Source: a phage
DNA length: 64,000 nt
Strand: one strand, 5' to 3'
Sequence record: NC_101835.1
Made by a program: the position numbers and the translations under genes. How positions within the stretch are numbered: the stretch's first letter is position 1; every line of letters starts with the position of its first letter. Positions 8,907-51,689 of the stretch are shown one piece after another. A model generated the notes under the pieces. It saw nothing but the letters and a program-made list of their open reading frames with translations, was not told the DNA's origin and searched no databases.

Positions 8907-9115
8907 TCAACACACATGCATCTGAAGAGACATCCGAAGGAGTGACCATATGTCCCTTGGATGAGCCAGTTAAAGAGGAAAACTTAGATTCTGAGGACTC
9001 TTCATCTTCGTCCCAGACAGATCCTGAGGCTGATGACCTGACGTGGGAGGACATCGTAGATATCTGGTTCTCTATTATGCCTGAGCACGAAGAGTTCAGA
9101 GGTGGTAGACTATGA
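8903..9115 (+). CDS. small acidic serine-rich protein
   Basis: ATG after AGGTGG, coupled to upstream peptide; replaces the longer track ORF 8702-9115 which reads through the promoter. Confidence 0.35.
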   Translation: MINTHASEETSEGVTICPLDEPVKEENLDSEDSSSSSQTDPEADDLTWEDIVDIWFSIMPEHEEFRGGRL

Positions 9116-9234
9116 AGCACCGAGCCCACACAGGTTCCTCATGCTAAAGCATGGCCTGAAGAGGCAAACGTGCATAATTCCTGCGCATTTGGACGTATAA
9201 TCCTGTTCACACTCTCATTTCCAGAGGAGATTTT

Positions 9235-9450
9235 ATGAAGATAGAGATATTTGGTGGAGCTGACAACACTCGTGGCCTGATTTACCTTGAATTCGATGAA
9301 TCATACCTGCCAGAGGTGTTAAATATAGACTCTGTTGCTGAGGCTTTGGGAGTAAACCCTAAAGAACTCCACTCTTGTGCTGAGATCGATGGTTGGGAAG
9401 AGACCATGAACATTGATTTCAGTGAAGTAGAGGATGAACCGCTGGACTGA
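9235..9450 (+). CDS. small acidic protein
   Basis: GAGGAG RBS; MKIEIFGG.. acidic; last rightward gene before the non-coding zone. Confidence 0.5.
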   Translation: MKIEIFGGADNTRGLIYLEFDESYLPEVLNIDSVAEALGVNPKELHSCAEIDGWEETMNIDFSEVEDEPLD

Positions 9451-9800
9451 CACACAATTAGCTGCCCGGCTAAAGTGCTGGAAGCACCTATAACACATCT
9501 TTCAACTAAATTTCCTACCACCACAATCACTTACCTCCCACACATGACTGTTTGCTTGTTTAGTGAGCAGTCATGCCTTGACATTCTTGCCTATCCTGAT
9601 AAAATTAAGTTCTTCTCTTTTCTTTTACCGAGTAATTCGGGTTTTCTGTTCTCTTCGGTTTGAAGGGGTATGGAGATACACCTGAGTGAACAGGGTGAAC
9701 AACCGAACCTTTGGCTATGGCATTAGCATGGCGAAGCGGACGGGTGACGAAAGAGGGGCCGGAGGACACCAGTCACTGCCATATGATATATGGGTGATAA

Positions 9801-10342
9801 CCTGAAGAGTCTGAATAAGTGTTTAAGTACCAGTCAGAGGAAAAGGTGAATGGTAGCCGAAGGGGGGAGGGGGGTTTCTTGTATCTTTAATTTGTATATT
9901 ATGTATACACTTGTAAACCAATCTAATCTGAATCTGTTTACCACACAAAGCGGATAGAGACAAATATTGCCTATTAAACTTGAATTATTTATAGAAAATA
10001 CCACAACACTACTTAAGTCTTTGATTTTACACACAAATCCTGCAGATATTCACCCTCCATATTTAACATACTTGTAACATATTCCATACTCTACCTGCCC
10101 GATCAATTCACCCAACTACATCCCCATATTTTCCCTGTCTGTACTACCCCTGCCCCGCCGGGAGTCCCATCATATCTGGCTTTCCAGCAAATATCACACC
10201 CACAAATATCATTGCCTGAAGAGGGTTTCATCCCATAATACCTGCCTTACCTGAAGAGCGCTTCATACACCACGTAAATTTTTTAATTGACCTCCCCCTG
10301 CCCCGCCGGAGAGGTTGGCTTTTCCCACACAGACCTGAAGAG
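9801..10342. repeat. dispersed direct repeats (CCTGAAGAG x4; CCCCTGCCCCGCCGG x2)
   Basis: CCTGAAGAG at 9801, 10215, 10250, 10334; CCCCTGCCCCGCCGG at 10148 and about 10295; GACCTACAGG x2 near 10390-10450. Confidence 0.5.
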
Positions 10343-10918
10343 TCAGCCAGAAATATCTGAATAGGCCCAATTCTACCACGATTTTGACCTGACCTACAGG
10401 GAGGCCCGAAGGGTCTAGCTTTCAGCTAGAGTCCTTGCAGGACCTACAGGAGCGCTGCCAGGCGGACGGAATGGGAATACTTCTCATTCTTATAACAATT
10501 CTCAAATATCGAGGCAGTGAGAGAAATTAATAGGCCAGGCCGTTCACACAGTGGCACAACATTTGCAACCTATTTTGTGTGGATGAATGAGAATACCTAT
10601 CATTATGAGAATAGTTATCATTACTGGCAATTTAACATAATACCCATTATGCGCACCACTGGCGATCCATACAGGGATTGATAACATGAGTTACTGTTTA
10701 CGCATATAACAATTATATTTATTACTATTTGTGTTGGGTATAGTTAGCAGCCGATAGATTAGATATTGACCTGCAGACTTCCAACTGTCTAGACGTCTAA
10801 ACGCCCACACAGCAAGGATTATACATACACAACTGAATGTAAACAGGGCCGCAAAAATGCTACCATACCAGATTGTAAATTTTTCATGCAGCACTTGACA
10901 AAGAGGAGGAAAACTTGT

Positions 10919-10960
10919 CTGACATACTGTGACATAATATGACATAATAGTGACACACTG
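10919..10960. repeat. tandem 10-11 bp iterons (TGACATA-type)
   Basis: tgacatactg / tgacataata / tgacataatag / tgacacactg in direct tandem. Confidence 0.5.
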
Positions 10961-11052
10961 GGCATACTCAACACTGGATACAATAACAATTGTTACTATT
11001 GCATGCCTCACTGTTCACGCATAGATGATAAGCCATGCCATTCGTTTGCATG

Positions 11053-11312
11053 ACAATAATTAACTTGTTTACAATCTTTCACTGGCTATGCCAGGTGACC
11101 TTTGGTCACCCCTTCGGGTGTTTCTATGACATAATATAAAAGCAGGGCAACTATTAGAAGATCTATAGTTGCCTTGCTTGTTATGTCATGATTAACTAAA
11201 TACAAGGCAACTATGATCTGATTAATAGATTGCAGACAAACTATCACGGGGGTGATGGTTACTGCTTTTATATTATGTCGCGACTCCGTCGCGCCATGCC
11301 ATTCGTTTGCAT
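11053..11312. repeat. inverted-repeat element bracketed by 19-bp direct repeats
   Basis: CCATGCCATTCGTTTGCAT at 11053-11071 and 11294-11312; inverted arms 11127-11146 and 11262-11279; palindrome 11147-11174; GGCAACTAT 9-mer x4 in alternating orientation. Confidence 0.5.
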
Positions 11313-11972
11313 AGTTGCCTTATTGTTACAGGTAAAATAATTACATTATTAATTATTTCTTATCTTTCTCTTAGTCATCTAATGATTCCAGTCAGTATAG
11401 TAATGTACAGTAAACATTAGACGACTAAATATTTCTCTGTTTATGATAACTCACCGTGACAATTTCGGACTGTTTACGAAAAATGTTGACACCTAAGCTG
11501 ATTTATGTTATGCAGTTTACACGAATAATTATTTTATGCAGGTATTGACTATTCCGTTATTCTGTGGTTGGAATAAATACTTTGCAGGCTATAGAATGGC
11601 GTGCGTACATGAATTCTGAGATCTGGCGGCTATAGTTATACTCGATTTTTCACGTAGAACACGCTTTTTAGTTTGTGTAAGTGTATGACTTATAAGAATT
11701 TTTACTTGTTGACAAGATATTGAAGATCTGCATCAGGTTAAAATTTGTGCAATAGCTGCATTACGTGCAATTTTGGAAGGGAAAACGGGTAAAAATAGCC
11801 CTGCTACCACACAATGAAAAGTTATGCAATAGTTATTTTACATGTATATTTGTACAGTGTGTGGGGTTGATGGCTCGTCAATTATTCCACTTGCCAGGTA
11901 GGGCCGTTTATGGTAGGAGAAGAGCAGACAAAAAGAAAGGGGCCTAAGCCCCTTGATAATTCAGTTAAAAAA

Positions 11973-12392
11973 TTATAATGATTCGTATATTTCAAAAATC
12001 CGATTTGCCAGGTCGTTACGGTAGCGGAATTTTTCCTCACGTTTGATCATAAGATCTTTATAGCCGTACTCTTTAAGCACTTCATTAACTTTATGGCGGC
12101 ATACTTTCATATTATCCTGCGCGTCACCAATAAATCTGTTGCTATGGTGCATGGCTTTAATTTCTTCTTCCAGGACCAGGGCAACTATGCGGACCGGATC
12201 AAGCTGATAGGCGGTAACATCCATGCGGCATTGTAAACGGCTTTTTACGTCTGCCACCGGATATACTGCAACCTCTTCCCCGTCAACATTGACAATAATT
12301 AGTTTACCATCGATTTCGAATCCTTTCGCCGCCGGACCGTGACAAAAAGCGTTATCAAAGCTATATGCCGGATTATTAGATTTAATGTTCAT
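11973..12392 (-). CDS. hypothetical protein
   Basis: AAGAGG RBS before ATG; last gene of the leftward array. Confidence 0.55.
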   Translation of the reverse strand: MNIKSNNPAYSFDNAFCHGPAAKGFEIDGKLIIVNVDGEEVAVYPVADVKSRLQCRMDVTAYQLDPVRIVALVLEEEIKAMHHSNRFIGDAQDNMKVCRHKVNEVLKEYGYKDLMIKREEKFRYRNDLANRIFEIYESL

Positions 12393-18470: not shown

Positions 18471-18527
18471 GATATTTTCTCCTATTTTCTTTGTTAGTGG
18501 CGGGAAGTTTTCCCGCCTGTGTGTTTA

Positions 18528-20344: not shown

Positions 20345-20395
20345 GGTGTTTTCTCCTTTTGTGTGCTCTGGGAAGTTTTCCCGTTTACGTGTTTA

Positions 20396-21020: not shown

Positions 21021-21069
21021 GATCTTTTTTCCTTTGTGCTGGCGGGAAACATTCCCGCCTTTTGTGTCT

Positions 21070-31929: not shown

Positions 31930-32205
31930 CAATAGTTCAGGTAGGTCGTTAAGCTACCCCGCACCATTACGTGCATAGCCATACGTTTTCACGTAGGATC
32001 GGACCATCTCATATTCCTATGATAAGCAACCACAGGAATCCTCCCATTTCGACCGCACTTGCTGGTCTACTTCCTTTCGGAATGGCCTCTGAGCGTTCGC
32101 TCTTTTGAGCGCTTCGTTGCGGATTACCTTGCCATAAGGTTTAGGCTTCCCGCAGTTAAAGAGGTTATTCGACATAGATTACTCTATGAAGCCACAATGT
32201 TATTT
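31930..32205 (-). other. putative group I self-splicing intron in DNA polymerase gene
   Basis: 276 nt between ..YYH and DE..; 5-prime exon ends in U, intron ends in G; GUGG near intron start can pair with exon CCAU; P-like AACUGCGGGAAGCC and Q-like AAUCCGCAACG; GAAA-capped hairpins. Confidence 0.5.
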
Positions 32206-34629
32206 ATGGTAATAAATAATACGACGAACACCTTCATCGTACCACCCACGCTTCACCATTTGGTGGTGCATAAGTATCCCAACCAAGTCACACAGCGATG
32301 CACCACCATTCTGTTGATATGCATTAAGTAAAGAGTGTTTAGATCGGGTCCAGATGGCATGACCATCAAAAGAGTAGATAAACTTCTTACCCGTTGCTTC
32401 CCAGAATTTCTCCAGATCCTCTTTACGGCCCTTAAGACCAGGGTTGGCATCCCAAAGCGCATCGATTACCCTTTGTCCCAACTCTGGAGAGATGTCCAGC
32501 ATATCTGCAACTTTATCTTTTTGTGCCCCGTACATAACCCCATACGTGATAGGTTTACCGTCGTTACGGGACACCTCTCTACCTGCTACTTTTGTATATG
32601 CCTCAGCATTGTTTTGGTGTGCGTCCCCGTTACTTACAACATCGTAATACAGGCCGTTGTCGAACTCAAAGGCACCCCAAGCCCCGATAAGCTGCTCTAA
32701 GTTGGACCCGTCAATACCGATCTCAAAGTATCCCGGAGGAACACCCCACAGACTACGCATCTCTTTACCCATAACCACTTTAGGAGATGGTTTAGGCATG
32801 TTTGCACAAATACTGTGTTTCTGTCTGGAAGTGTTTGTTAATCCAGAGCTTTTAGCAGGAAGCTTATGGTCAATCTTCAAACGTGGGTGATTAAGAAGAC
32901 CAGTGTCAACCTTATCCTCCTTGATTGGATCAAGTACCGATCTGCGGTTTCGCAATGATAACCATAAGACGATATCTTTAGCCATCTCTCCGTTCAATTT
33001 TTCAAGATTCGGACACAGGTGTCCAAACGTATCTTTCAGTTGCGGAGAAGTAATAAGTGCCCTAGCTTTTCTACGTATTTTCCCGAATACTTCCTTTTTA
33101 ATCCTTTCGGAGTTAGGAAAGCTTCGGAACTTGTGCACTGTTGTCTGAAACTTAGCATCAGTTTTGTTCCAGAAGTTGATAATTAGGTCACAATACTCTG
33201 ACTCTAAAAGCTCGTCCATGTATGCATATACTCGTGCATCAACATCTGCATCAGGTAGAGCTTTCTTCTTGCTGTCTTTAGTTACATCCTTAGTTCTCCA
33301 CATTGTCGGAAGCCAACCAGCACTGATCAGGTATCGCTTAATGTCGTCCTGATTGCTGATTTTCATAGGTATCTTGCAGTCAGGCATTCGCTTCTGCTGC
33401 AGATCGCTTATTGCCTGATCCATCAGCTCTTTAGGCAAAGGTTGTGGTGTGGAGGTGCCCTTAATATAACCTCTCAAGAAATCAGCCATCTTGTCGGGGT
33501 CTTTGCAGCCCATCTCTTCACACCATTTTATCCCCATCTTACTGACATCTCCTGTGGAGGTAAATGCTCTCTTAGGCGGGGCTTTGAACTCTAGAGCGCT
33601 CATGTCTACAGGATAGCCAAGCTTATCTTTTAACCATTTCCAACCATTATTAGAGATTGTCCCGTCTTGGTTAAACGGCTTTTCAGGGAACTTGGGCCGC
33701 TGAGACATTGACAGCTCTTTTAAAGGCAGTTGTGGTTCAACACGATCAGCGATTTCTTTCATCCACGCATCGCAACGGTCACGTAAAGCAATAGCTCCAT
33801 CTATGTCGAAGTATACACCCTGACGGGCCTGCAGCTCCATCAGGAAGTGCTGCAGCATGCCTCGACGTAATGCGTTCTTCCAGGTGATCTTCTTGAACCC
33901 TTTCGGCTTCTCTTTGGCAGGATCGTACATAAAGTTCTGCATGTCAGATTTGCCGTAGAATACACCTTTTGATTCCGCTACCAGTTCTTTCCAGAGCAGC
34001 TCCTGGATGATAACGTCCTCAAATACACGATCCACATACTTCCACAACGGAAGATCGCGCCAGTCATCAATTTGAACTTTCTGGTTACCAAGGGCATAGC
34101 CCCATGCCATAAGGCCGTGGGGACCAACAGGCTGCATTTTCTTAGTAACCGGGTTGAATACAGCGTCCGGACAACCTTTTGGTAAAGGGCGATCAGGCCA
34201 CAAGATTCGGCTCATCGCCAACGTATCAAACAGGTTAACCTGGTGGTCGTTGATAGTCCCCATGCATTTAGGATCACGGAACATATCAAAATGAATACCG
34301 GATAATCTTTCCATCAGCATAAAGTCATAACTGTAGCAGTTATGGCAGTTCAAAGCTGTTGGTGACCAGTCGGAATTGCCTGTAAGCCAACCTTCCAACT
34401 CCGAAAAATCTGCTATGCGAACTTCAAAACCTTTATAAAGAGTTTTCTTTGCCAGAATGAAGTTCTTAGCCTTTTCTATATCCTCCTCGGAGTAGTGTGT
34501 GCGGTCATTTAGAGGAAGGAACAGCATAAAACGGTTCTTATTCAGCTCTTTAAACAGGCCGCAGTGATAATAAAGATCTGGATCTTCCAAAAGCCCTGAG
34601 GCCTCCAGATCGAAGCACCAATTACTCAT
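32200..34629 (-). CDS. DNA polymerase (family A, T7 gp5-like), N-terminal 808 aa / putative exon 1
   Basis: N-terminal FDLEASGL..HCG exonuclease motif like T7 gp5; motif A region IGIDGSNLEQL; motif B KPITYGVMYGAQ; ORF stops at ..RIIYYHK, i.e. at motif C. Confidence 0.85.
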   Translation of the reverse strand: MSNWCFDLEASGLLEDPDLYYHCGLFKELNKNRFMLFLPLNDRTHYSEEDIEKAKNFILAKKTLYKGFEVRIADFSELEGWLTGNSDWSPTALNCHNCYSYDFMLMERLSGIHFDMFRDPKCMGTINDHQVNLFDTLAMSRILWPDRPLPKGCPDAVFNPVTKKMQPVGPHGLMAWGYALGNQKVQIDDWRDLPLWKYVDRVFEDVIIQELLWKELVAESKGVFYGKSDMQNFMYDPAKEKPKGFKKITWKNALRRGMLQHFLMELQARQGVYFDIDGAIALRDRCDAWMKEIADRVEPQLPLKELSMSQRPKFPEKPFNQDGTISNNGWKWLKDKLGYPVDMSALEFKAPPKRAFTSTGDVSKMGIKWCEEMGCKDPDKMADFLRGYIKGTSTPQPLPKELMDQAISDLQQKRMPDCKIPMKISNQDDIKRYLISAGWLPTMWRTKDVTKDSKKKALPDADVDARVYAYMDELLESEYCDLIINFWNKTDAKFQTTVHKFRSFPNSERIKKEVFGKIRRKARALITSPQLKDTFGHLCPNLEKLNGEMAKDIVLWLSLRNRRSVLDPIKEDKVDTGLLNHPRLKIDHKLPAKSSGLTNTSRQKHSICANMPKPSPKVVMGKEMRSLWGVPPGYFEIGIDGSNLEQLIGAWGAFEFDNGLYYDVVSNGDAHQNNAEAYTKVAGREVSRNDGKPITYGVMYGAQKDKVADMLDISPELGQRVIDALWDANPGLKGRKEDLEKFWEATGKKFIYSFDGHAIWTRSKHSLLNAYQQNGGASLCDLVGILMHHQMVKRGWYDEGVRRIIYYHK

Positions 34630-35360
34630 ACTGTCTCCTCCTGTGTCTTCTCAGCATTCTTTCTTGCAGCTATTGCATCGTCCCTGTTCTTGAAATACCC
34701 AAGGCATTTCCTTTTACCATCTACATAAATTCTGGCTACCCATCTTTCATGGGTTTTATCCCAATTCACCCCTGAGCAACCGCTGGTGTTATTATACTGC
34801 ACGGCTCTTCCACTCTTGTGCGAAAAACCATTATCTTCGAAGAACTTTCTTGCCCACTCTGCCTCTTCAAAAGTTCTGTACTGGCCTAGCCAGACCCTTT
34901 CACCTACAGAGTCTGTGCCTTGAGCTACCCATGCCCCTCTTTCTTCAGAATAGTGCACCCCGACCCTGCCAGATTTGTTGTTGCTACGAGGTATCTTGCA
35001 ACTTTTCTTTTTGTTATCTGTAGGTTCGAGTAGTTGCAAATTTTGAATACTGTTGTCAGCCACACCACCTGTTTCCCTTATCTCCTTGATGTGGTCAACC
35101 TCATACCCTTCCGGTACAGGACCGTTAAACATTTCCCAGATTATAACGTGGGCACCTTTAGTGCAATGCTTTCCTAGACTAACCACAGGCCTGCCATCAG
35201 CATCTTGCCCCTTGTCAGCTCTGGAGCCTGCTGAAGTTTTAACATATCCTACACCGCTGCCTGCCAGAATGTCTATCTTCCAAAAAAGATTTTGACCGTC
35301 ATACTCCAATATTTCTGACCACAAGTGATTAGCTACACAGTGATCTCTGAACTCGTTCAT
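34626..35360 (-). CDS. HNH homing endonuclease with two AP2 domains
   Basis: HNH core GYEVDHIKEIRETGGVADNSIQNLQLL..N; AP2-like repeats SGRVGVHYSEERGAWVAQ and SGCSGVNWDKTHERWVARIYVDGKRKCLGYF; stop overlaps polymerase start. Confidence 0.75.
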   Translation of the reverse strand: MNEFRDHCVANHLWSEILEYDGQNLFWKIDILAGSGVGYVKTSAGSRADKGQDADGRPVVSLGKHCTKGAHVIIWEMFNGPVPEGYEVDHIKEIRETGGVADNSIQNLQLLEPTDNKKKSCKIPRSNNKSGRVGVHYSEERGAWVAQGTDSVGERVWLGQYRTFEEAEWARKFFEDNGFSHKSGRAVQYNNTSGCSGVNWDKTHERWVARIYVDGKRKCLGYFKNRDDAIAARKNAEKTQEETV

Positions 35361-44959: not shown

Positions 44960-45007
44960 AATAACTCCAAATAGAAAATCCCCGCCGAAGCGGGGTGGTA
45001 TTAGAAA

Positions 45008-45397: not shown

Positions 45398-46582
45398 TTA
45401 AGCTTTAGCCAAAATGGCGCTAAACTCTTCACCAAACTCTTTTACAATCTTCATCAGGTTTGGGTATGCTTTGATCAGCTGAGCAACAATCTTGTCACGA
45501 CCTTTACCGATAAGCAAGGCATTTCCTAAGGCATTAGGTTTCATCATCGCCATAAAGACTGAGAATACAAAATCTCGGTTCTCGTCCTTGAAGTTTTCCC
45601 AAAGGAAATCGAGGAAGTTTGCCACACAGCTAACAAGATCTTCGTCGGAGATACTTGCATTTTCCATCATATTACGAATAGCGATACAACCTTCAGATCC
45701 AAGAATCCACAAGATGTCTGGCTGTTTAGGGCCTACGTATTCTTTGCAACCTCCTGCCATAATCCGACCTATTTCCGGTAAGTTGCGTTTCTTGGTGTGG
45801 TAAGTCCAGATCTCTACCGCTGCAGTGTGACCAATAGCACCTTGTAGAAGAACACGGGCCATAGCGTCAGAAATAATACCGCTGTCAAAATCGTGCAAGA
45901 TATCAGATGCAGCAACCCAAGATCGCGGTGTGGCAAAAGATGGACAATTAATCTCAGCCATGGCCTCATAATTATCAATAGCTGATGGAACTCTTTTCAG
46001 ATATCCAATTACAGAGGAGTGCACCCCATTAAGGAATGCGTAGTCCTCAATAAACACCTCTGCGTTGCTTGTAACTTCTACAATGATAAAGCGGTTAGCC
46101 AGAGGGGCTTCGAGCGCCGAAAGAACAGCACCATCTGTAGAACGGTTACCTGCAGCTACAAAAACAGAGCCCTTAGGGAATGCATAGGTGCCACACTTGT
46201 GGTCGAGCATAATCTGCATTGCAACCTTTTGCAGGTAGTTATCTGCATGAGTGAGCTCATCCAGAAAGACAATTCCGCTCCAGTCAGGATCCGCAGGCCA
46301 AAATTCTGGGATTGCAAACACTGTACGTGTAGTCCCATCCGCTTCTACAGGGATAGGTAGCCCAGATAAGTCGGCAGGATCTTTATCTGACAGCCGCACG
46401 TCAACCAGGTTGTCATCTCTCTCACCGAACATATTATCAGCGATCTGCTTCATCACCTGACTCTTTCCCACACCCATTGGTCCTAAAATCAGGACAGATC
46501 GGTTATGACGCTGGGCAAACTGAATGATAGCTGGCAACTCACGGACAGTGATTTGACCACTTTCAAATACGTTTCTTGACAT
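45398..46582 (-). CDS. AAA+ ATPase (MoxR/CobS-like, AAA_5-type)
   Basis: Walker A LILGPMGVGKSQV; Walker B IVFLDELTHA. Confidence 0.7.
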   Translation of the reverse strand: MSRNVFESGQITVRELPAIIQFAQRHNRSVLILGPMGVGKSQVMKQIADNMFGERDDNLVDVRLSDKDPADLSGLPIPVEADGTTRTVFAIPEFWPADPDWSGIVFLDELTHADNYLQKVAMQIMLDHKCGTYAFPKGSVFVAAGNRSTDGAVLSALEAPLANRFIIVEVTSNAEVFIEDYAFLNGVHSSVIGYLKRVPSAIDNYEAMAEINCPSFATPRSWVAASDILHDFDSGIISDAMARVLLQGAIGHTAAVEIWTYHTKKRNLPEIGRIMAGGCKEYVGPKQPDILWILGSEGCIAIRNMMENASISDEDLVSCVANFLDFLWENFKDENRDFVFSVFMAMMKPNALGNALLIGKGRDKIVAQLIKAYPNLMKIVKEFGEEFSAILAKA

Positions 46583-46884
46583 TAGTAAAAGTCCTCTACT
46601 TGTGTGTAAGTGTTTTCAAAGTTTTCCAAAACAGATATCACATCGGATCTGTCAATATCGTACACAACTTCCCAGTTGTATGCAACCCTTTCTGCTGTTG
46701 CCTCTTCTGGCGCTAGTCGTCTGCTGGCATAAAAGAGTGTTGGAGTACACTTTCTTGCTTGCCCTCTAACTTTCCCATAATAATATCTGTGAATATCTTT
46801 GTCAAAATTTAACTCTTTTTCTGCACGAAGTTCATATTGCTGGTATAACATGTTTATTACTCTTTTAAGTGGCATCCTTGCCAC
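46582..46884 (-). CDS. hypothetical protein
   Basis: ORF coupled to AAA+ gene; true start ambiguous (GTG/ATG candidates). Confidence 0.4.
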   Translation of the reverse strand: MARMPLKRVINMLYQQYELRAEKELNFDKDIHRYYYGKVRGQARKCTPTLFYASRRLAPEEATAERVAYNWEVVYDIDRSDVISVLENFENTYTQVEDFY

Positions 46885-48175: not shown

Positions 48176-49075
48176 TCAAACCCTCGCATAAATTAAACTT
48201 GTATCAGTATACTTCTTTAATGGGTAAATATCCTGTCCATAGATGCAATCATTAAACACCTCATCTACCCAAAGGCTACACTTATATCCCATCATTTCTA
48301 AAACACCCATCTCTTCTTCGGTAAACTTATCACCGCTCTTGCAAGATGTCAATACCTCATTCTGAACTCTTGCTACCTCGAAGCGGTTATTGGCAATATC
48401 GCTATTGGCGATCAAATACTCACCTAGAGGGTGTGCGGCATTAAAGATGCACAGTGGACGGCTGACGTAATAGTCTCCGGGTGTATAAAAATTGTTGAGG
48501 TCTTTCACTAGAACATTCTTATCAGTCACTTCATTTATAACATCATGCATATCGCACATCTTTATATGTTTGAGGATTCCATCCCCCATCACAAAATAAA
48601 AACTTGCTGAGACACTTTCGGCATAGATCTTACTAGATCCGTTGTAGTTGTATTTTACTCGGATGCTAACGGGGGTTTTTCCTGTCGCGTTAGCCATCAT
48701 CCAAAGAAATGGCAGCTCATACTTCTCCTCTGAGGAAACAAAAGGTGAGGTAGCCAGAGATCGAAAACCTCCAGAGAAGTTGAAAGTTACAGAACCGCTC
48801 CGGCGGTATGATACCGCGTATTCTACTTTTATATCGACATACCCATTGGAATAGGTGTGTCCTTCATTATCTAAATATGTCCACTTATCAGACCCAGATA
48901 CCAATCTACGCTCAATAACCTTCATCACTATAGGAATTAATGGGTTGGTACAAACCGCTTTTGAAGTAGCTTTATCATCTAAAGCCTCGTAAATTGCAGA
49001 AAGGATGTCTCCAGCTGAAAGATTGGTTGTTATATCCTGTTGCCACCGCGTACTAAAACTGTTAAGATTTGCCAT
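48176..49075 (-). CDS. hypothetical protein (299 aa)
   Basis: AGGAGC RBS; first gene of leftward operon from the divergent promoter. Confidence 0.55.
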   Translation of the reverse strand: MANLNSFSTRWQQDITTNLSAGDILSAIYEALDDKATSKAVCTNPLIPIVMKVIERRLVSGSDKWTYLDNEGHTYSNGYVDIKVEYAVSYRRSGSVTFNFSGGFRSLATSPFVSSEEKYELPFLWMMANATGKTPVSIRVKYNYNGSSKIYAESVSASFYFVMGDGILKHIKMCDMHDVINEVTDKNVLVKDLNNFYTPGDYYVSRPLCIFNAAHPLGEYLIANSDIANNRFEVARVQNEVLTSCKSGDKFTEEEMGVLEMMGYKCSLWVDEVFNDCIYGQDIYPLKKYTDTSLIYARV

Positions 49076-49115
49076 GAGTGAGTGCTCCTATGTTAGTTTT
49101 CTTTCGAATGGGTGC

Positions 49116-49144
49116 ACTATATCGGAGATTTAGAGTAAAGTCAA
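49116..49144 (-). promoter_or_regulatory. sigma70-like promoter (TTGACT-N17-TATAGT), leftward
   Basis: Minus strand TTGACT (49139-49144) and TATAGT (49116-49121). Confidence 0.5.
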
Positions 49145-49157
49145 CACGTTTTTGATG

Positions 49158-49186
49158 TTGACATCTGTTGAGACAATTGATAAGAT
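49158..49186 (+). promoter_or_regulatory. sigma70-like promoter (TTGACA-N17-TAAGAT), rightward
   Basis: TTGACA 49158-49163, TAAGAT 49181-49186; back-to-back with the leftward promoter. Confidence 0.5.
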
Positions 49187-49217
49187 TTCTTCACTTACAG
49201 AGCACGAGAGACAACTC

Positions 49218-50195
49218 ATGAATCTTGAAAAATATTATACACCAGAAGAGTTAGAGCGCCTGCTCAAAAAATATAGACGCAAACAGAATAATGCACGGAA
49301 ACGAGATATAGAGTTCGACCTGTCGTGGGAAGAATACCTACTATTTGGTAAAAAACTTTTAGGGGAAGGGGTATGCGACTACACCCTTATACCTTTCGAC
49401 ATGCACACAGATGAAAACGGACTGGGAAATCCTTTCTATCCATCTCTGGAGCGGATAGATGATGAAGGTCCTTACGCAATTGATAATTGTTGTGTGGTAG
49501 GGTTGAGGTGCAACGCTCTGAAGGACTGTCTGGTAGATAAAAAGACTGCAATATTGATAAAAGACAAAACTGATCGAAAAATTGTCCAGCAGATGATGCT
49601 CCACCTGAGCGAAGAGCGTATGGAGAAATTGAAAGGTGATTATACTTTCGAAGATTTCATCTTGCAATACGGGACAGAAGAAGATAAACTAGCACTTTTT
49701 GACGAAGAGGAAGAAGATATGTCACCAATGCAGGACTTTAAAAATTTCATGGCTGATCGTGCAGCCAACAAACACATTTCAGATATCGTAAACGAAACTG
49801 TGACAGAAGAAATTGAAGAACAGAACTCTGAAGAGGAAAAAGAGCCTCAGGAGGTCGAAGAGGAGATTGCAGAAGAGGTTCCTGCACTGCCTGATGATGT
49901 TGAGGTTGCTAAGGCTTACACTTTCTATTGTCAAACGTTCTACGATGCAGGTATGAAAGTTGATCTGTCGTTCAGCCAATTTAAGAGTTCATATATTCGC
50001 AAATGCTGTGCTTTAACTGGTGAACGTCTCGGAGCTGGACTTAAACCGCTGTTGGTGACCGACTGGAATAAAGGTTTCACTAAAGGAAACTTTATGGTAG
50101 TATCTCCAATTATGGAAAAAGCCATGACAGATCTTATGAAGACCACTCGCATGACAATGACTGAGTTGGCAGGTATTTTCAAACACGTTAAATAA
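49218..50195 (+). CDS. hypothetical protein with HNH-like DRID-type segment and acidic linker
   Basis: ATG after GAGAGA, downstream of promoter (track start 49152 would overlap it); PSLERIDDEGPYAIDNCCVVGLRCNALK; E-rich linker. Confidence 0.45.
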   Translation: MNLEKYYTPEELERLLKKYRRKQNNARKRDIEFDLSWEEYLLFGKKLLGEGVCDYTLIPFDMHTDENGLGNPFYPSLERIDDEGPYAIDNCCVVGLRCNALKDCLVDKKTAILIKDKTDRKIVQQMMLHLSEERMEKLKGDYTFEDFILQYGTEEDKLALFDEEEEDMSPMQDFKNFMADRAANKHISDIVNETVTEEIEEQNSEEEKEPQEVEEEIAEEVPALPDDVEVAKAYTFYCQTFYDAGMKVDLSFSQFKSSYIRKCCALTGERLGAGLKPLLVTDWNKGFTKGNFMVVSPIMEKAMTDLMKTTRMTMTELAGIFKHVK

Positions 50196-50207
50196 TGACA
50201 GGGGCCA

Positions 50208-51689
50208 ATGGCCCCTTCTGGAGTTTTAATGGATAGCAGAAGTTCAGAAATCGTTGCCTCACAGAAAGATGATGCCCTGAGAATGTTGCAGGCTGCACGT
50301 ATGTATCTCCTTGAAAAGCTGCCGTTTTATGGCACACTGCTGTCAGGGTTGCAGTTCGTAGAAAACCACACATGGTGCTCCACCATGGCAACCGACCATA
50401 AACGCATCTATTACAGCCCTGAGTTCATTATGGGATTGGCTGATGAACGCAAGGCTATTCTTAAGGCCTCTCTAACTGACAAGCAGTTTGAGATGGCTGA
50501 GGTTTTCTATTCCCCCAAATCTGTGAAAGAGGTGGCCTTTCTTCTGTCGCATGAGGTGGGGCATATTATCTGTGATCACCTGGTCCGTGGTAAAAGCTTT
50601 GAGCCGGAACTGTTCAATATTGCTTGTGATCACGTTATCAACACAGGCCTTGTGGTTGACTTTAGCAAACCTCCTTGTGTTTTCTTCTCGAAGGGGAAAA
50701 GCACTACGTTCGTGAAAGGTAAGCCTTTTGGCTTCTTAGCCAGCTGCTACTGCGACATGAAGTTTCATGGATGGATTGCTGAGAACGTTTATGCAGTTCT
50801 TGATAAGCAAAGAGATCAGAATAACGGTAAAAGTAAGAGCGGTAAAGGTGAGAACTCTCAAGAAGATAAGCGACAAACCGATGATCACATGAGTGGTAAC
50901 GGTGGCACCAGTGATGATCTTGGAAAGGCTATGGGGTATGATCAGCCACAACCTGTAATCAGTCAATCTGATAAAGATCAGGCCATGCAGGACTCTGGTG
51001 ACATGCTGGAGGCAGCAATGCAAGCTTCCGGAGGTCGTTGCCCTGAGGCGGTTCGTGAGTTTGTCAAGAATAGAGGTAAGCCTGTAATTAATTATATAGA
51101 CATCATCAAGCAACGCATGTTGTCTAAACGAAAGGCTGAACTGACCTACAGAAAACCTGGTCGCCGATCTGGGTCTTTGACCAGCACAATGCGAAAAGTT
51201 GGGGCTATAAACAAGAACCAGCACGTTATTGTTCCTGGTCGTAATCCGGAAAACACCATAGATATTGTGGTAGCTTTAGACGTTTCTGGCTCGATCTCTC
51301 AAAGAACTTTAAAGAAAATGTTCAATGAAATCACCGGATTGTGCAATCTGTATAAAGAGTTTAAGGTTACAATGTTCTGTTGGTCAACTGAAGTCGGAGA
51401 GGTTAAAGTATACACTCGCGGCAACATAGACGAGATGATCAACTATGAGGTACACTCAACATGGGGCACAACAGCTGCTTGCGTGTTCGAGTATCTGGAT
51501 GCCAACATACCGAATGCAAAAGATGTCATCGTCCTGACCGACCTATACTTTGAGCATAACTTTGAACAAAAGGCTGTTGACAACAAGTGGAAAAAGTACG
51601 ATACTTTATGGGTTCTCACCGAAGGGTATAATAAAAATTATATCCCTAGCTTTGGGAAAACTGTGGAATTAATCGAGTACGCTAAGTAA
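50208..51689 (+). CDS. VWA-domain protein with N-terminal HExxH metallopeptidase-like motif
   Basis: LSHEVGHIICDH zinc-peptidase motif; VWA MIDAS motif IVVALDVSGSIS; typical partner of MoxR-like AAA+. Confidence 0.65.
   Translation: MAPSGVLMDSRSSEIVASQKDDALRMLQAARMYLLEKLPFYGTLLSGLQFVENHTWCSTMATDHKRIYYSPEFIMGLADERKAILKASLTDKQFEMAEVFYSPKSVKEVAFLLSHEVGHIICDHLVRGKSFEPELFNIACDHVINTGLVVDFSKPPCVFFSKGKSTTFVKGKPFGFLASCYCDMKFHGWIAENVYAVLDKQRDQNNGKSKSGKGENSQEDKRQTDDHMSGNGGTSDDLGKAMGYDQPQPVISQSDKDQAMQDSGDMLEAAMQASGGRCPEAVREFVKNRGKPVINYIDIIKQRMLSKRKAELTYRKPGRRSGSLTSTMRKVGAINKNQHVIVPGRNPENTIDIVVALDVSGSISQRTLKKMFNEITGLCNLYKEFKVTMFCWSTEVGEVKVYTRGNIDEMINYEVHSTWGTTAACVFEYLDANIPNAKDVIVLTDLYFEHNFEQKAVDNKWKKYDTLWVLTEGYNKNYIPSFGKTVELIEYAK

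Follow-up and report, generated by a model that had tools for sequence, protein, structure and literature searches.

Bidirectional promoters have been described between genes 10 and 11 of bacteriophage rV5 (Kropinski et al. 2013, Virol J 10:76, PMC3606486), and Table S4 of that paper (Additional file 4) lists them as P010 (6636..6681, minus strand) and P011 (6685..6713, plus strand), found by consensus search only. The window analysed here, a stretch of 64,000 nucleotides from record NC_101835.1, belongs to an rV5-like E. coli myovirus of the genus Vequintavirus; for 5 kb around the junction under study, 120 phage records match with an identity of 90-99.9%, and almost all belong to Escherichia phages of this genus. 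The junction is the gap between the orthologues of rV5 genes 10 (leftward, gp10) and 11 (rightward, gp11), and it measures 142 bp from the gp10 start codon (CAT 49073-49075) to ATG 49218, as an earlier, sequence-only reading of the window had claimed. The 46 nt of rV5 P010, CAAAAACGTG-TTGACT-TTACTCTAAATCTCCGA-TATAGT-GCACCCA, are identical in the window, and rV5 P011, TTGACATCTGTTGAGACAATTGATACGAT, is one base off (TACGAT in rV5 vs TAAGAT in the window). We note that the best matches to the 5-kb stretch (98-99.9% identity) are records named 'Campylobacter phage', including GenBank MG065658, MG065661 and MG065682; the 'Campylobacter phage' record that was opened is flagged UNVERIFIED, unannotated and classified as Vequintavirus, and the host labels of these records are probably wrong.

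Both promoters lie exactly where the sequence-only reading had put them, in the raw sequence as well as in a consensus scan: TTGACT-N17-TATAGT leftward (49144..49116) and TTGACA-N17-TAAGAT rightward (49158..49186), with 13 bp between the two -35 boxes (Table 1). Each has near-consensus hexamers that match at 10 of 12 positions, and both -10 hexamers carry the A2 and T6 of the consensus. The spacer is 17 bp in both, and 16-17 bp in all 34 related loci described below, where 17 +/- 1 bp would be looked for in a sigma70 promoter. An extended -10 (TG at -15/-14) is present in P011 and absent from P010. Each promoter faces the first gene of one of two divergent units, in the same orientation as that gene, which has no other promoter. 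The predicted P010 leader is unstructured (-2.8 kcal/mol, z = 0) and that of P011 weakly structured (-4.1 kcal/mol, z = -1.1).

Table 1. Features at and around the gp10-gp11 junction and related elements, in window coordinates unless stated otherwise.
Feature	Position	Strand	Remarks
gp10, 299 aa	48176..49075	-	first leftward gene; phrog_12338
gp10 Shine-Dalgarno AGGAG	49085..49089	-	9 nt before ATG (49075..49073); Murica annotates an RBS at the equivalent place
Intrinsic terminator CCCCGCTTCGGCGGGG + T-rich tail	44980..44995	-	t003 of rV5 Table S4
Leftward -35 TTGACT (rV5 P010)	49139..49144	-	sequence, consensus scan
Leftward spacer, 17 nt	49122..49138	-	
Leftward -10 TATAGT	49116..49121	-	sequence, consensus scan; within P010 of rV5 Table S4
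Predicted leftward transcription start	49109	-	7th nt after -10, from hexamer positions; 33-nt leader
Inter-box gap CACGTTTTTGATG	49145..49157		central A5/T5 tract 49149-49153; leftward AAAAA-CG-TG-TTGACT
Dyad GTCAACA-N9-TGTTGAC	49140..49162		two -35 boxes + upstream TG; sole notable symmetric element
Rightward -35 TTGACA (rV5 P011)	49158..49163	+	sequence, consensus scan
Rightward spacer, 17 nt	49164..49180	+	
Rightward extended -10 TGaTAAGAT	49178..49186	+	hexamer 49181..49186; TG 49178-49179
Predicted rightward transcription start	49193	+	from hexamer positions; 25-nt leader
gp11, 325 aa	49218..50195	+	Srd/HNH-like; first rightward gene
gp11 start ATG 49155 in other records	49155 (equivalent)		nom, I29
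gp11 start ATG 49218 in other records	49218 (equivalent)		Murica, JEP1, inoa, ECP32
gp11 start in rV5 record, 311 aa	49260 (equivalent)		rV5
gp12, DUF2201_N + DUF2201 metallopeptidase/VWA	50229..51689	+	
5' hairpins after promoter-like sites	18517..18499, 21059..21041	-	weaker near 20382, 13176, 15026; also L003 ~1521-1541

Sites matching the consensus at 10 or more of 12 positions are in clear excess across the whole window, with 56 observed against 18.3 +/- 4.0 expected from 200 dinucleotide shuffles, and at 48 of the 56 (47 plus the leftward site of the pair) the orientation agrees with that of the local genes. Divergent back-to-back pairs with -35 boxes no more than 40 bp apart were observed twice, compared with 0.055 per shuffled 64-kb window. 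Among the 47 co-oriented promoter-like sites, 12 have TG directly upstream of the -35 box (7.1% in the background, P = 9e-5) and 19 an AAAA tract 3-15 nt upstream of it (6.5% in the background, P = 3e-11). This phage has, in other words, a sigma70 promoter flavour of its own, A-tract..TG-TTGACA-N17-TAnnnT. The region upstream of P010 reads AAAAA-CG-TG-TTGACT and that of P011 TTTTT-GA-TG-TTGACA, so that the upstream TG is present in both and the A-tract in P010. The other divergent pair, at 10901 (-) and 10919 (+), is the weaker of the two. It falls in a region, about 9100 to 12000, that is devoid of long ORFs (none exceeds 106 aa), appears to be the 'non-coding' box of the rV5 genome map and yielded neither tRNA genes nor Rfam families. 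We also note that at several early promoter-like sites a 5' hairpin of the GGCGGGAAAACUUCCCGCC type, stable at -14.6 kcal/mol, follows the predicted start by no more than a few nt; these hairpins may be mRNA-stabilising stem-loops. The leaders of gp11 homologues in other genera carry a conserved ACGGG-N5-CCC hairpin just before GGAG, which is missing from the P011 leader of the window.

Within the genus, seven Vequintavirus sequences were aligned across the gap and four more were read (ECP32, I29, L018 and L019). Both -35 boxes, the leftward -10 and the rightward TGn are invariant, and the rightward -10 varies at its third base only (TAAGAT or TACGAT, the extended -10 of rV5 being TGATACGAT). 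The leftward spacer has substitutions at 7 of its 17 positions, and in ECP32 most of the P011 spacer is replaced (tctacccaggcgcttgg vs tctgttgagacaattga) with N17, TGn and both hexamers kept. For a wider comparison, 35 loci upstream of gp11 homologues came from a tblastn search with gp11, from annotated records and from an IMG/VR scan, and the same divergent pair occupies the junction in 34 of them, from several Vequintavirinae genera, Seuna-, Mydo-, Henuna- and Avunavirus among them, and from an uncultured lineage; one locus, L033, was without a rightward site under the search criteria. The rightward promoter follows the pattern TTGAC(A/T)-N16/17-nAnnnT, its -35 box being TTGACA in 33 of the 34 loci and TTGACT in one, and the leftward promoter follows TTGnnn-N16/17-TAnnnT, its -35 box preceding the rightward one by a few bp. 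In the sister lineage the rightward TGn is kept and the -10 hexamer is TAGTGT or TAATGT. TTGACT is the leftward -35 box of every Vequintavirus locus and of the uncultured sister lineage; the other genera have TTGATT, TTGACT, TTGTTT, TTGAAG or TTGCTT. In two further relatives, SSBI34 and phiA047, the gene upstream of the gp11 homologue is co-oriented with it, and even so a TTGACA/T-N17 site precedes the homologue itself.

Control windows from the same loci, searched under the same criteria, contained the full pair in 0 of 5866 cases and a rightward-type site in 7.9%; because the search among relatives demanded TTG in the -35 box and A2 and T6 in the -10, invariance there is partly by construction, and the control addresses the frequency of the pair and not this bias. 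The weight of the cross-locus evidence lies in the regularity with which a pair recurs at this exact place. Between Vequintavirus and the other genera, identity within the rightward promoter is 0.98 for the -35 box, 0.25 for the spacer and 0.50 for the -10, and within the leftward promoter 0.81, 0.28 and 0.67 respectively. Judged from these alignments, the boxes are under selective constraint relative to their surroundings and the spacers have diverged to background identity. The sequence-only reading had two back-to-back sigma70-type promoters fire outward into two units; the comparative evidence speaks for such a predicted arrangement, which also agrees with the rV5 predictions.

The composition of the two units departs in part from what had been read from the sequence. 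Leftward, gp10 is followed by five small genes, a MoxR-like AAA+ ATPase gene (45398..46582) and gp3, and the intrinsic terminator at 44995..44980 likely ends the unit. Beyond it lie a cell-wall hydrolase, rIIA and a 401-aa ORF without family match, and then, at 32-41 kb and with promoter-like sites of their own, a PIF1-like helicase, a DnaB-like primase-helicase and a family-A polymerase. The leftward 'replication/AAA+ operon' thus keeps its AAA+ part, the MoxR-like gene, and loses its replication part, such genes being 8-17 kb further on. Transcription of the leftward unit may have another entry point at 46805..46777 (-), where the small gene that immediately precedes the MoxR-like gene contains a strong promoter-like site (TTGACA-N17-TATTAT, 11/12). 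No Pfam match was obtained for gp10 or gp11; for gp10 the sole outside hint, human FUT9, matches weakly (E = 0.0013) and is the probable source of the 'fucosyltransferase' label. A group I intron (Rfam RF00028, 64.7 bits, E = 4e-14) at 31980..32215 (-) abuts the family-A DNA polymerase ORF (32200..34629), an HNH endonuclease ORF (34626..35360) adjoins the same ORF, and the polymerase gene may be split.

Rightward, the proposed 'VWA-protein operon' does include a VWA protein, as its second gene, gp12; the first gene is the Srd/HNH-like gp11. The PHROG labels matched by gp11 are HNH endonuclease (E = 7e-111), 'decoy of host sigma70' (E = 1e-12), endonuclease VII (E = 4e-10) and 'Srd anti-sigma factor' (E = 3e-9), and no solved structures were found for it. 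Since Srd of T4 has been reported to stimulate RNase E, 'anti-sigma' is for gp11 a label and not a demonstrated activity. The rV5 authors considered gp11 a probable Srd homologue (PMC3606486). gp12 most likely starts at ATG 50229, as annotated, with GGAG at 50221-50224. A GC-rich hairpin, AGGGGCCAATGGCCCCT (-14 kcal/mol), occupies 50200..50216 between the gp11 stop and gp12; it has no clean T-run, is annotated as a terminator in Murica, and holds the mechanical start ATG 50208 in its loop. MoxR ATPases are usually paired with a metallopeptidase/VWA-type partner, and here the MoxR-like AAA+ ATPase and the DUF2201 metallopeptidase/VWA protein are on opposite arms of the divergent promoter, not in one operon.

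GenBank records disagree on where gp11 begins (Table 1). The sequence-only reading had preferred ATG 49218 to the mechanical ORF start TTG 49152, with which it is in frame, and several lines of evidence agree with this choice. ATG 49155 is AGG in 5 of 10 other Vequintavirus genomes, and the ten variable positions in 49155-49217 are spread 4/4/2 over codon positions 1/2/3 of the long ORF, as in non-coding sequence, compared with only four variable positions, all synonymous, in the 83 bases after 49218. In tblastn searches distant homologues align from query residue 19-23, residue 23 being the Met of 49218; the annotated N-termini of homologues coincide with this Met in a multiple alignment, and the PHROG family profile begins at residue 3 of the 49218 reading. 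A start at ATG 49155 or TTG 49152 was rejected as unconserved, without a codon-position signal or Shine-Dalgarno sequence, and upstream of the -35 box. The start used for rV5 gene 11, equivalent to 49260, was also rejected, as it reads CTG in the window and the preceding 14 codons are conserved and align with homologues. The Shine-Dalgarno sequence before 49218 is weak (GAGAGA, 49206-49211) and resembles the AGAG-type sites of other early genes in the window. Taken together, the comparative evidence favours ATG 49218 as the probable gp11 start.

We propose that the gap is, very probably, a compact bidirectional early promoter of rV5-like phages, at which the host sigma70 polymerase would use two back-to-back promoters. 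RNA polymerase with sigma70 would recognise P010, as TGTTGACT-N17-TATAGT with an upstream A5 tract, and P011, as TGTTGACA-N17-TAAGAT with the extended -10 TG, and would start, presumably early in infection, near 49109 leftward and 49193 rightward, about 85 bp apart. The leftward transcript would run from gp10 to gp3, including the MoxR-like AAA+ ATPase gene, as far as the terminator, and the rightward transcript would cover gp11 from ATG 49218, gp12 (metallopeptidase + VWA) and the small genes beyond. For the Certrevirus phage CB7, in which no RNA polymerase gene was found, dependence on the host enzyme has been proposed (Buttimer et al. 2020, PMC7344957), and for rV5 all the promoters reported are of the E. 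coli consensus type (PMC3606486). Against the proposal stand the imperfect boxes in the -10 of P011 (TAAGAT) and in the leftward promoters of other genera (8-9 of 12), the weak Shine-Dalgarno sequence before ATG 49218, and the closeness of the -35 boxes, across whose 13 bp two polymerases may interfere, so that the two promoters need not be active together. The searched literature offered no transcription start, transcript, footprint or reporter data for any Vequintavirinae phage; the sole RNA-seq paper there that mentions Vequintavirus dealt with a T5-like phage.

One alternative is that the dyad at the centre of the gap is an operator, so that a dimeric regulator of phage or host origin would cover both -35 boxes and switch the two units together, much as at lambda OR. 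Two perfect 7-bp arms, 9 bp apart, form an inverted repeat midway between the promoters, conservation of the 13-bp gap is high within Vequintavirus, and the resemblance of gp11 to the Srd and 'decoy of sigma70' families makes some early shut-off plausible. However, two inverted TTGAC boxes by themselves dictate five of the seven arm bases, and the other two are the TG that is general in the promoters of this phage. T49156 is G in 5 of 10 other Vequintavirus sequences (A140, JEP1, inoa, ECP32 and L019), which shortens the dyad arm, and in L018 the gap also ends in GG, with one extra T. In the other genera, where the boxes are 3-4 bp apart, there is no common dyad beyond the boxes. We read the dyad as a probable by-product of two TGTTGAC promoters, not an operator, because its arms are accounted for by the boxes and the TG, T49156 is not conserved and the dyad is missing in other genera. 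The search for operator-like dyads that the sequence-only reading had recommended returned only these two TGTTGAC boxes and no separate operator; other dyads or direct repeats in the gap were short, chance-level matches, among them the 7-nt ACTCATG, which recurs in inverted form at the two start codons (about five such repeats are estimated by chance in 400 bp). No conserved dyad distinct from the boxes was found, and no repressor gene or other DNA-binding regulator was identified among the flanking genes. The 'shared regulatory node' of that reading is left with adjacency as its support, the dyad being incompletely conserved within the genus and absent from the others, and we regard an operator here as quite improbable. 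A terminator scan also flagged the dyad (49162..49140), which was rejected as a terminator: its stem contains three G-C pairs, folds at -8.6 kcal/mol (z = -1.1 and -2.5) and is not followed by a proper T-run, and as it lies upstream of both predicted starts it would not be transcribed. No known RNA families were found in 48800-49500 at E <= 1.

Another possibility is that only one promoter is functional, most likely the rightward P011, or that the two are mutually exclusive through overlapping polymerase footprints and alpha-subunit contacts. With boxes 13 bp apart, and elsewhere 3-4 bp, the -40 to -60 region of each promoter overlies the -35 box and spacer of the other. The leftward boxes of other genera are also weaker, at 8-9/12. 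Against this, no other co-oriented promoter-like site lies upstream of gp10 and the genes that follow it, and their promoter must be in the gap; the leftward -35, N16-17 and -10 are kept in every lineage, with a spacer identity of just 0.28. Back-to-back promoters about 80 bp apart can moreover both be active, as PR and PRM of lambda are, and we consider this explanation highly improbable. The strand switch could also be a replication origin or other DNA-level element in which the hexamers are incidental, as the GC skew changes sign there, with the cumulative skew minimum at about 49.0 kb and the lowest GC content (0.38-0.39). A change of coding strand alone yields such a skew flip, however, two promoters and two leaders nearly fill the 142 bp, and the gap has no iterons or repeat arrays and no RNA family matches; this reading is scarcely credible. 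Host transcription from two adjoining promoters remains the explanation that we prefer.

Spacing between the -35 boxes falls into two classes, 13-14 bp in Vequintavirus and the uncultured lineage L020-L023, and 3-4 bp in five genera, Seuna-, Mydo-, Henuna- and Avunavirus among them, and in other distant contigs. The extra ~10 bp of the long class, about one helical turn, is an A5-6/T5-6 tract. In work of Estrem and colleagues in 1999, the proximal subsite of the UP element is said to read AAAAAARNR, with an A-tract at about -46 to -41. In the window AAAAACGTG is directly upstream of the P010 -35 box, where its A5 tract resembles a candidate proximal UP-element subsite, and the same tract faces P011 as TTTTT. 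Perhaps the relative rotational setting of the two polymerases has been selected and the A/T tract is a shared dock for alpha subunits that couples the promoters, either cooperatively or as a toggle, with the Srd-like gp11 able to feed back on both, but we hold this to be unlikely. The contigs L020-L023 (118-141 kb, from IMG/VR metagenome 3300045988) encode gp11 proteins 63-66% identical to that of the window and had no megablast match in the sequenced-phage collection.

The promoter pair is real, ordinary and already published as a prediction for rV5 in 2013. What is added here is a phylogenetic footprint, an explanation of the dyad, a resolution of the gp11 start and the two-class -35 spacing, so that a pair that was formerly just a consensus match is now backed by comparative data. 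The pair is the likely point at which host RNA polymerase enters two early units, in a group of phages with wide use in E. coli O157 biocontrol and therapy, and the evidence settles the conflict between GenBank records over the gp11 start (equivalents of 49155, 49218 and 49260) in favour of 49218. A compact, conserved bidirectional promoter could be a part for phage engineering, although the practical value is modest and no new question is opened.

Among the closest described systems besides rV5 is Salmonella phage PVP-SE1 (GenBank GU070616), in which a promoter is annotated upstream of gene 218 ('anti-sigma factor') at the same junction, where a leftward gene adjoins the gp11 homologue, with the sequence TTGACA-N17-GATAAT. 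That record has the rightward promoter only, and a leftward TTGATT-N17-TATGCT was identified in the present analysis; its -35 boxes are 3 bp apart vs 13 bp in the window, and its leader carries the ACGGG-N5-CCC hairpin that the window is without. The early promoter consensus of Certrevirus is AAAA(N3-4)TGTTGAC(N17-19)TATAAT (Buttimer et al. 2020, PMC7344957). P010 of the window, AAAAA-CG-TGTTGACT-N17-TATAGT, shares with it the A-tract, the TG and TTGAC, whereas P011 has a T-tract and not an A-tract upstream, and the consensus was drawn from many sites in another genus. The promoter flavour of this phage as a whole matches the Certrevirus consensus. PR and PRM of lambda are divergent sigma70 promoters between which CI and Cro bind three 17-bp operators. 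The window's gap differs from lambda in that no operator was found in it, and its phage is strictly lytic; the likeness lies in the divergent sigma70 promoters, with starts about 82-85 bp apart as predicted here, that split two early units.
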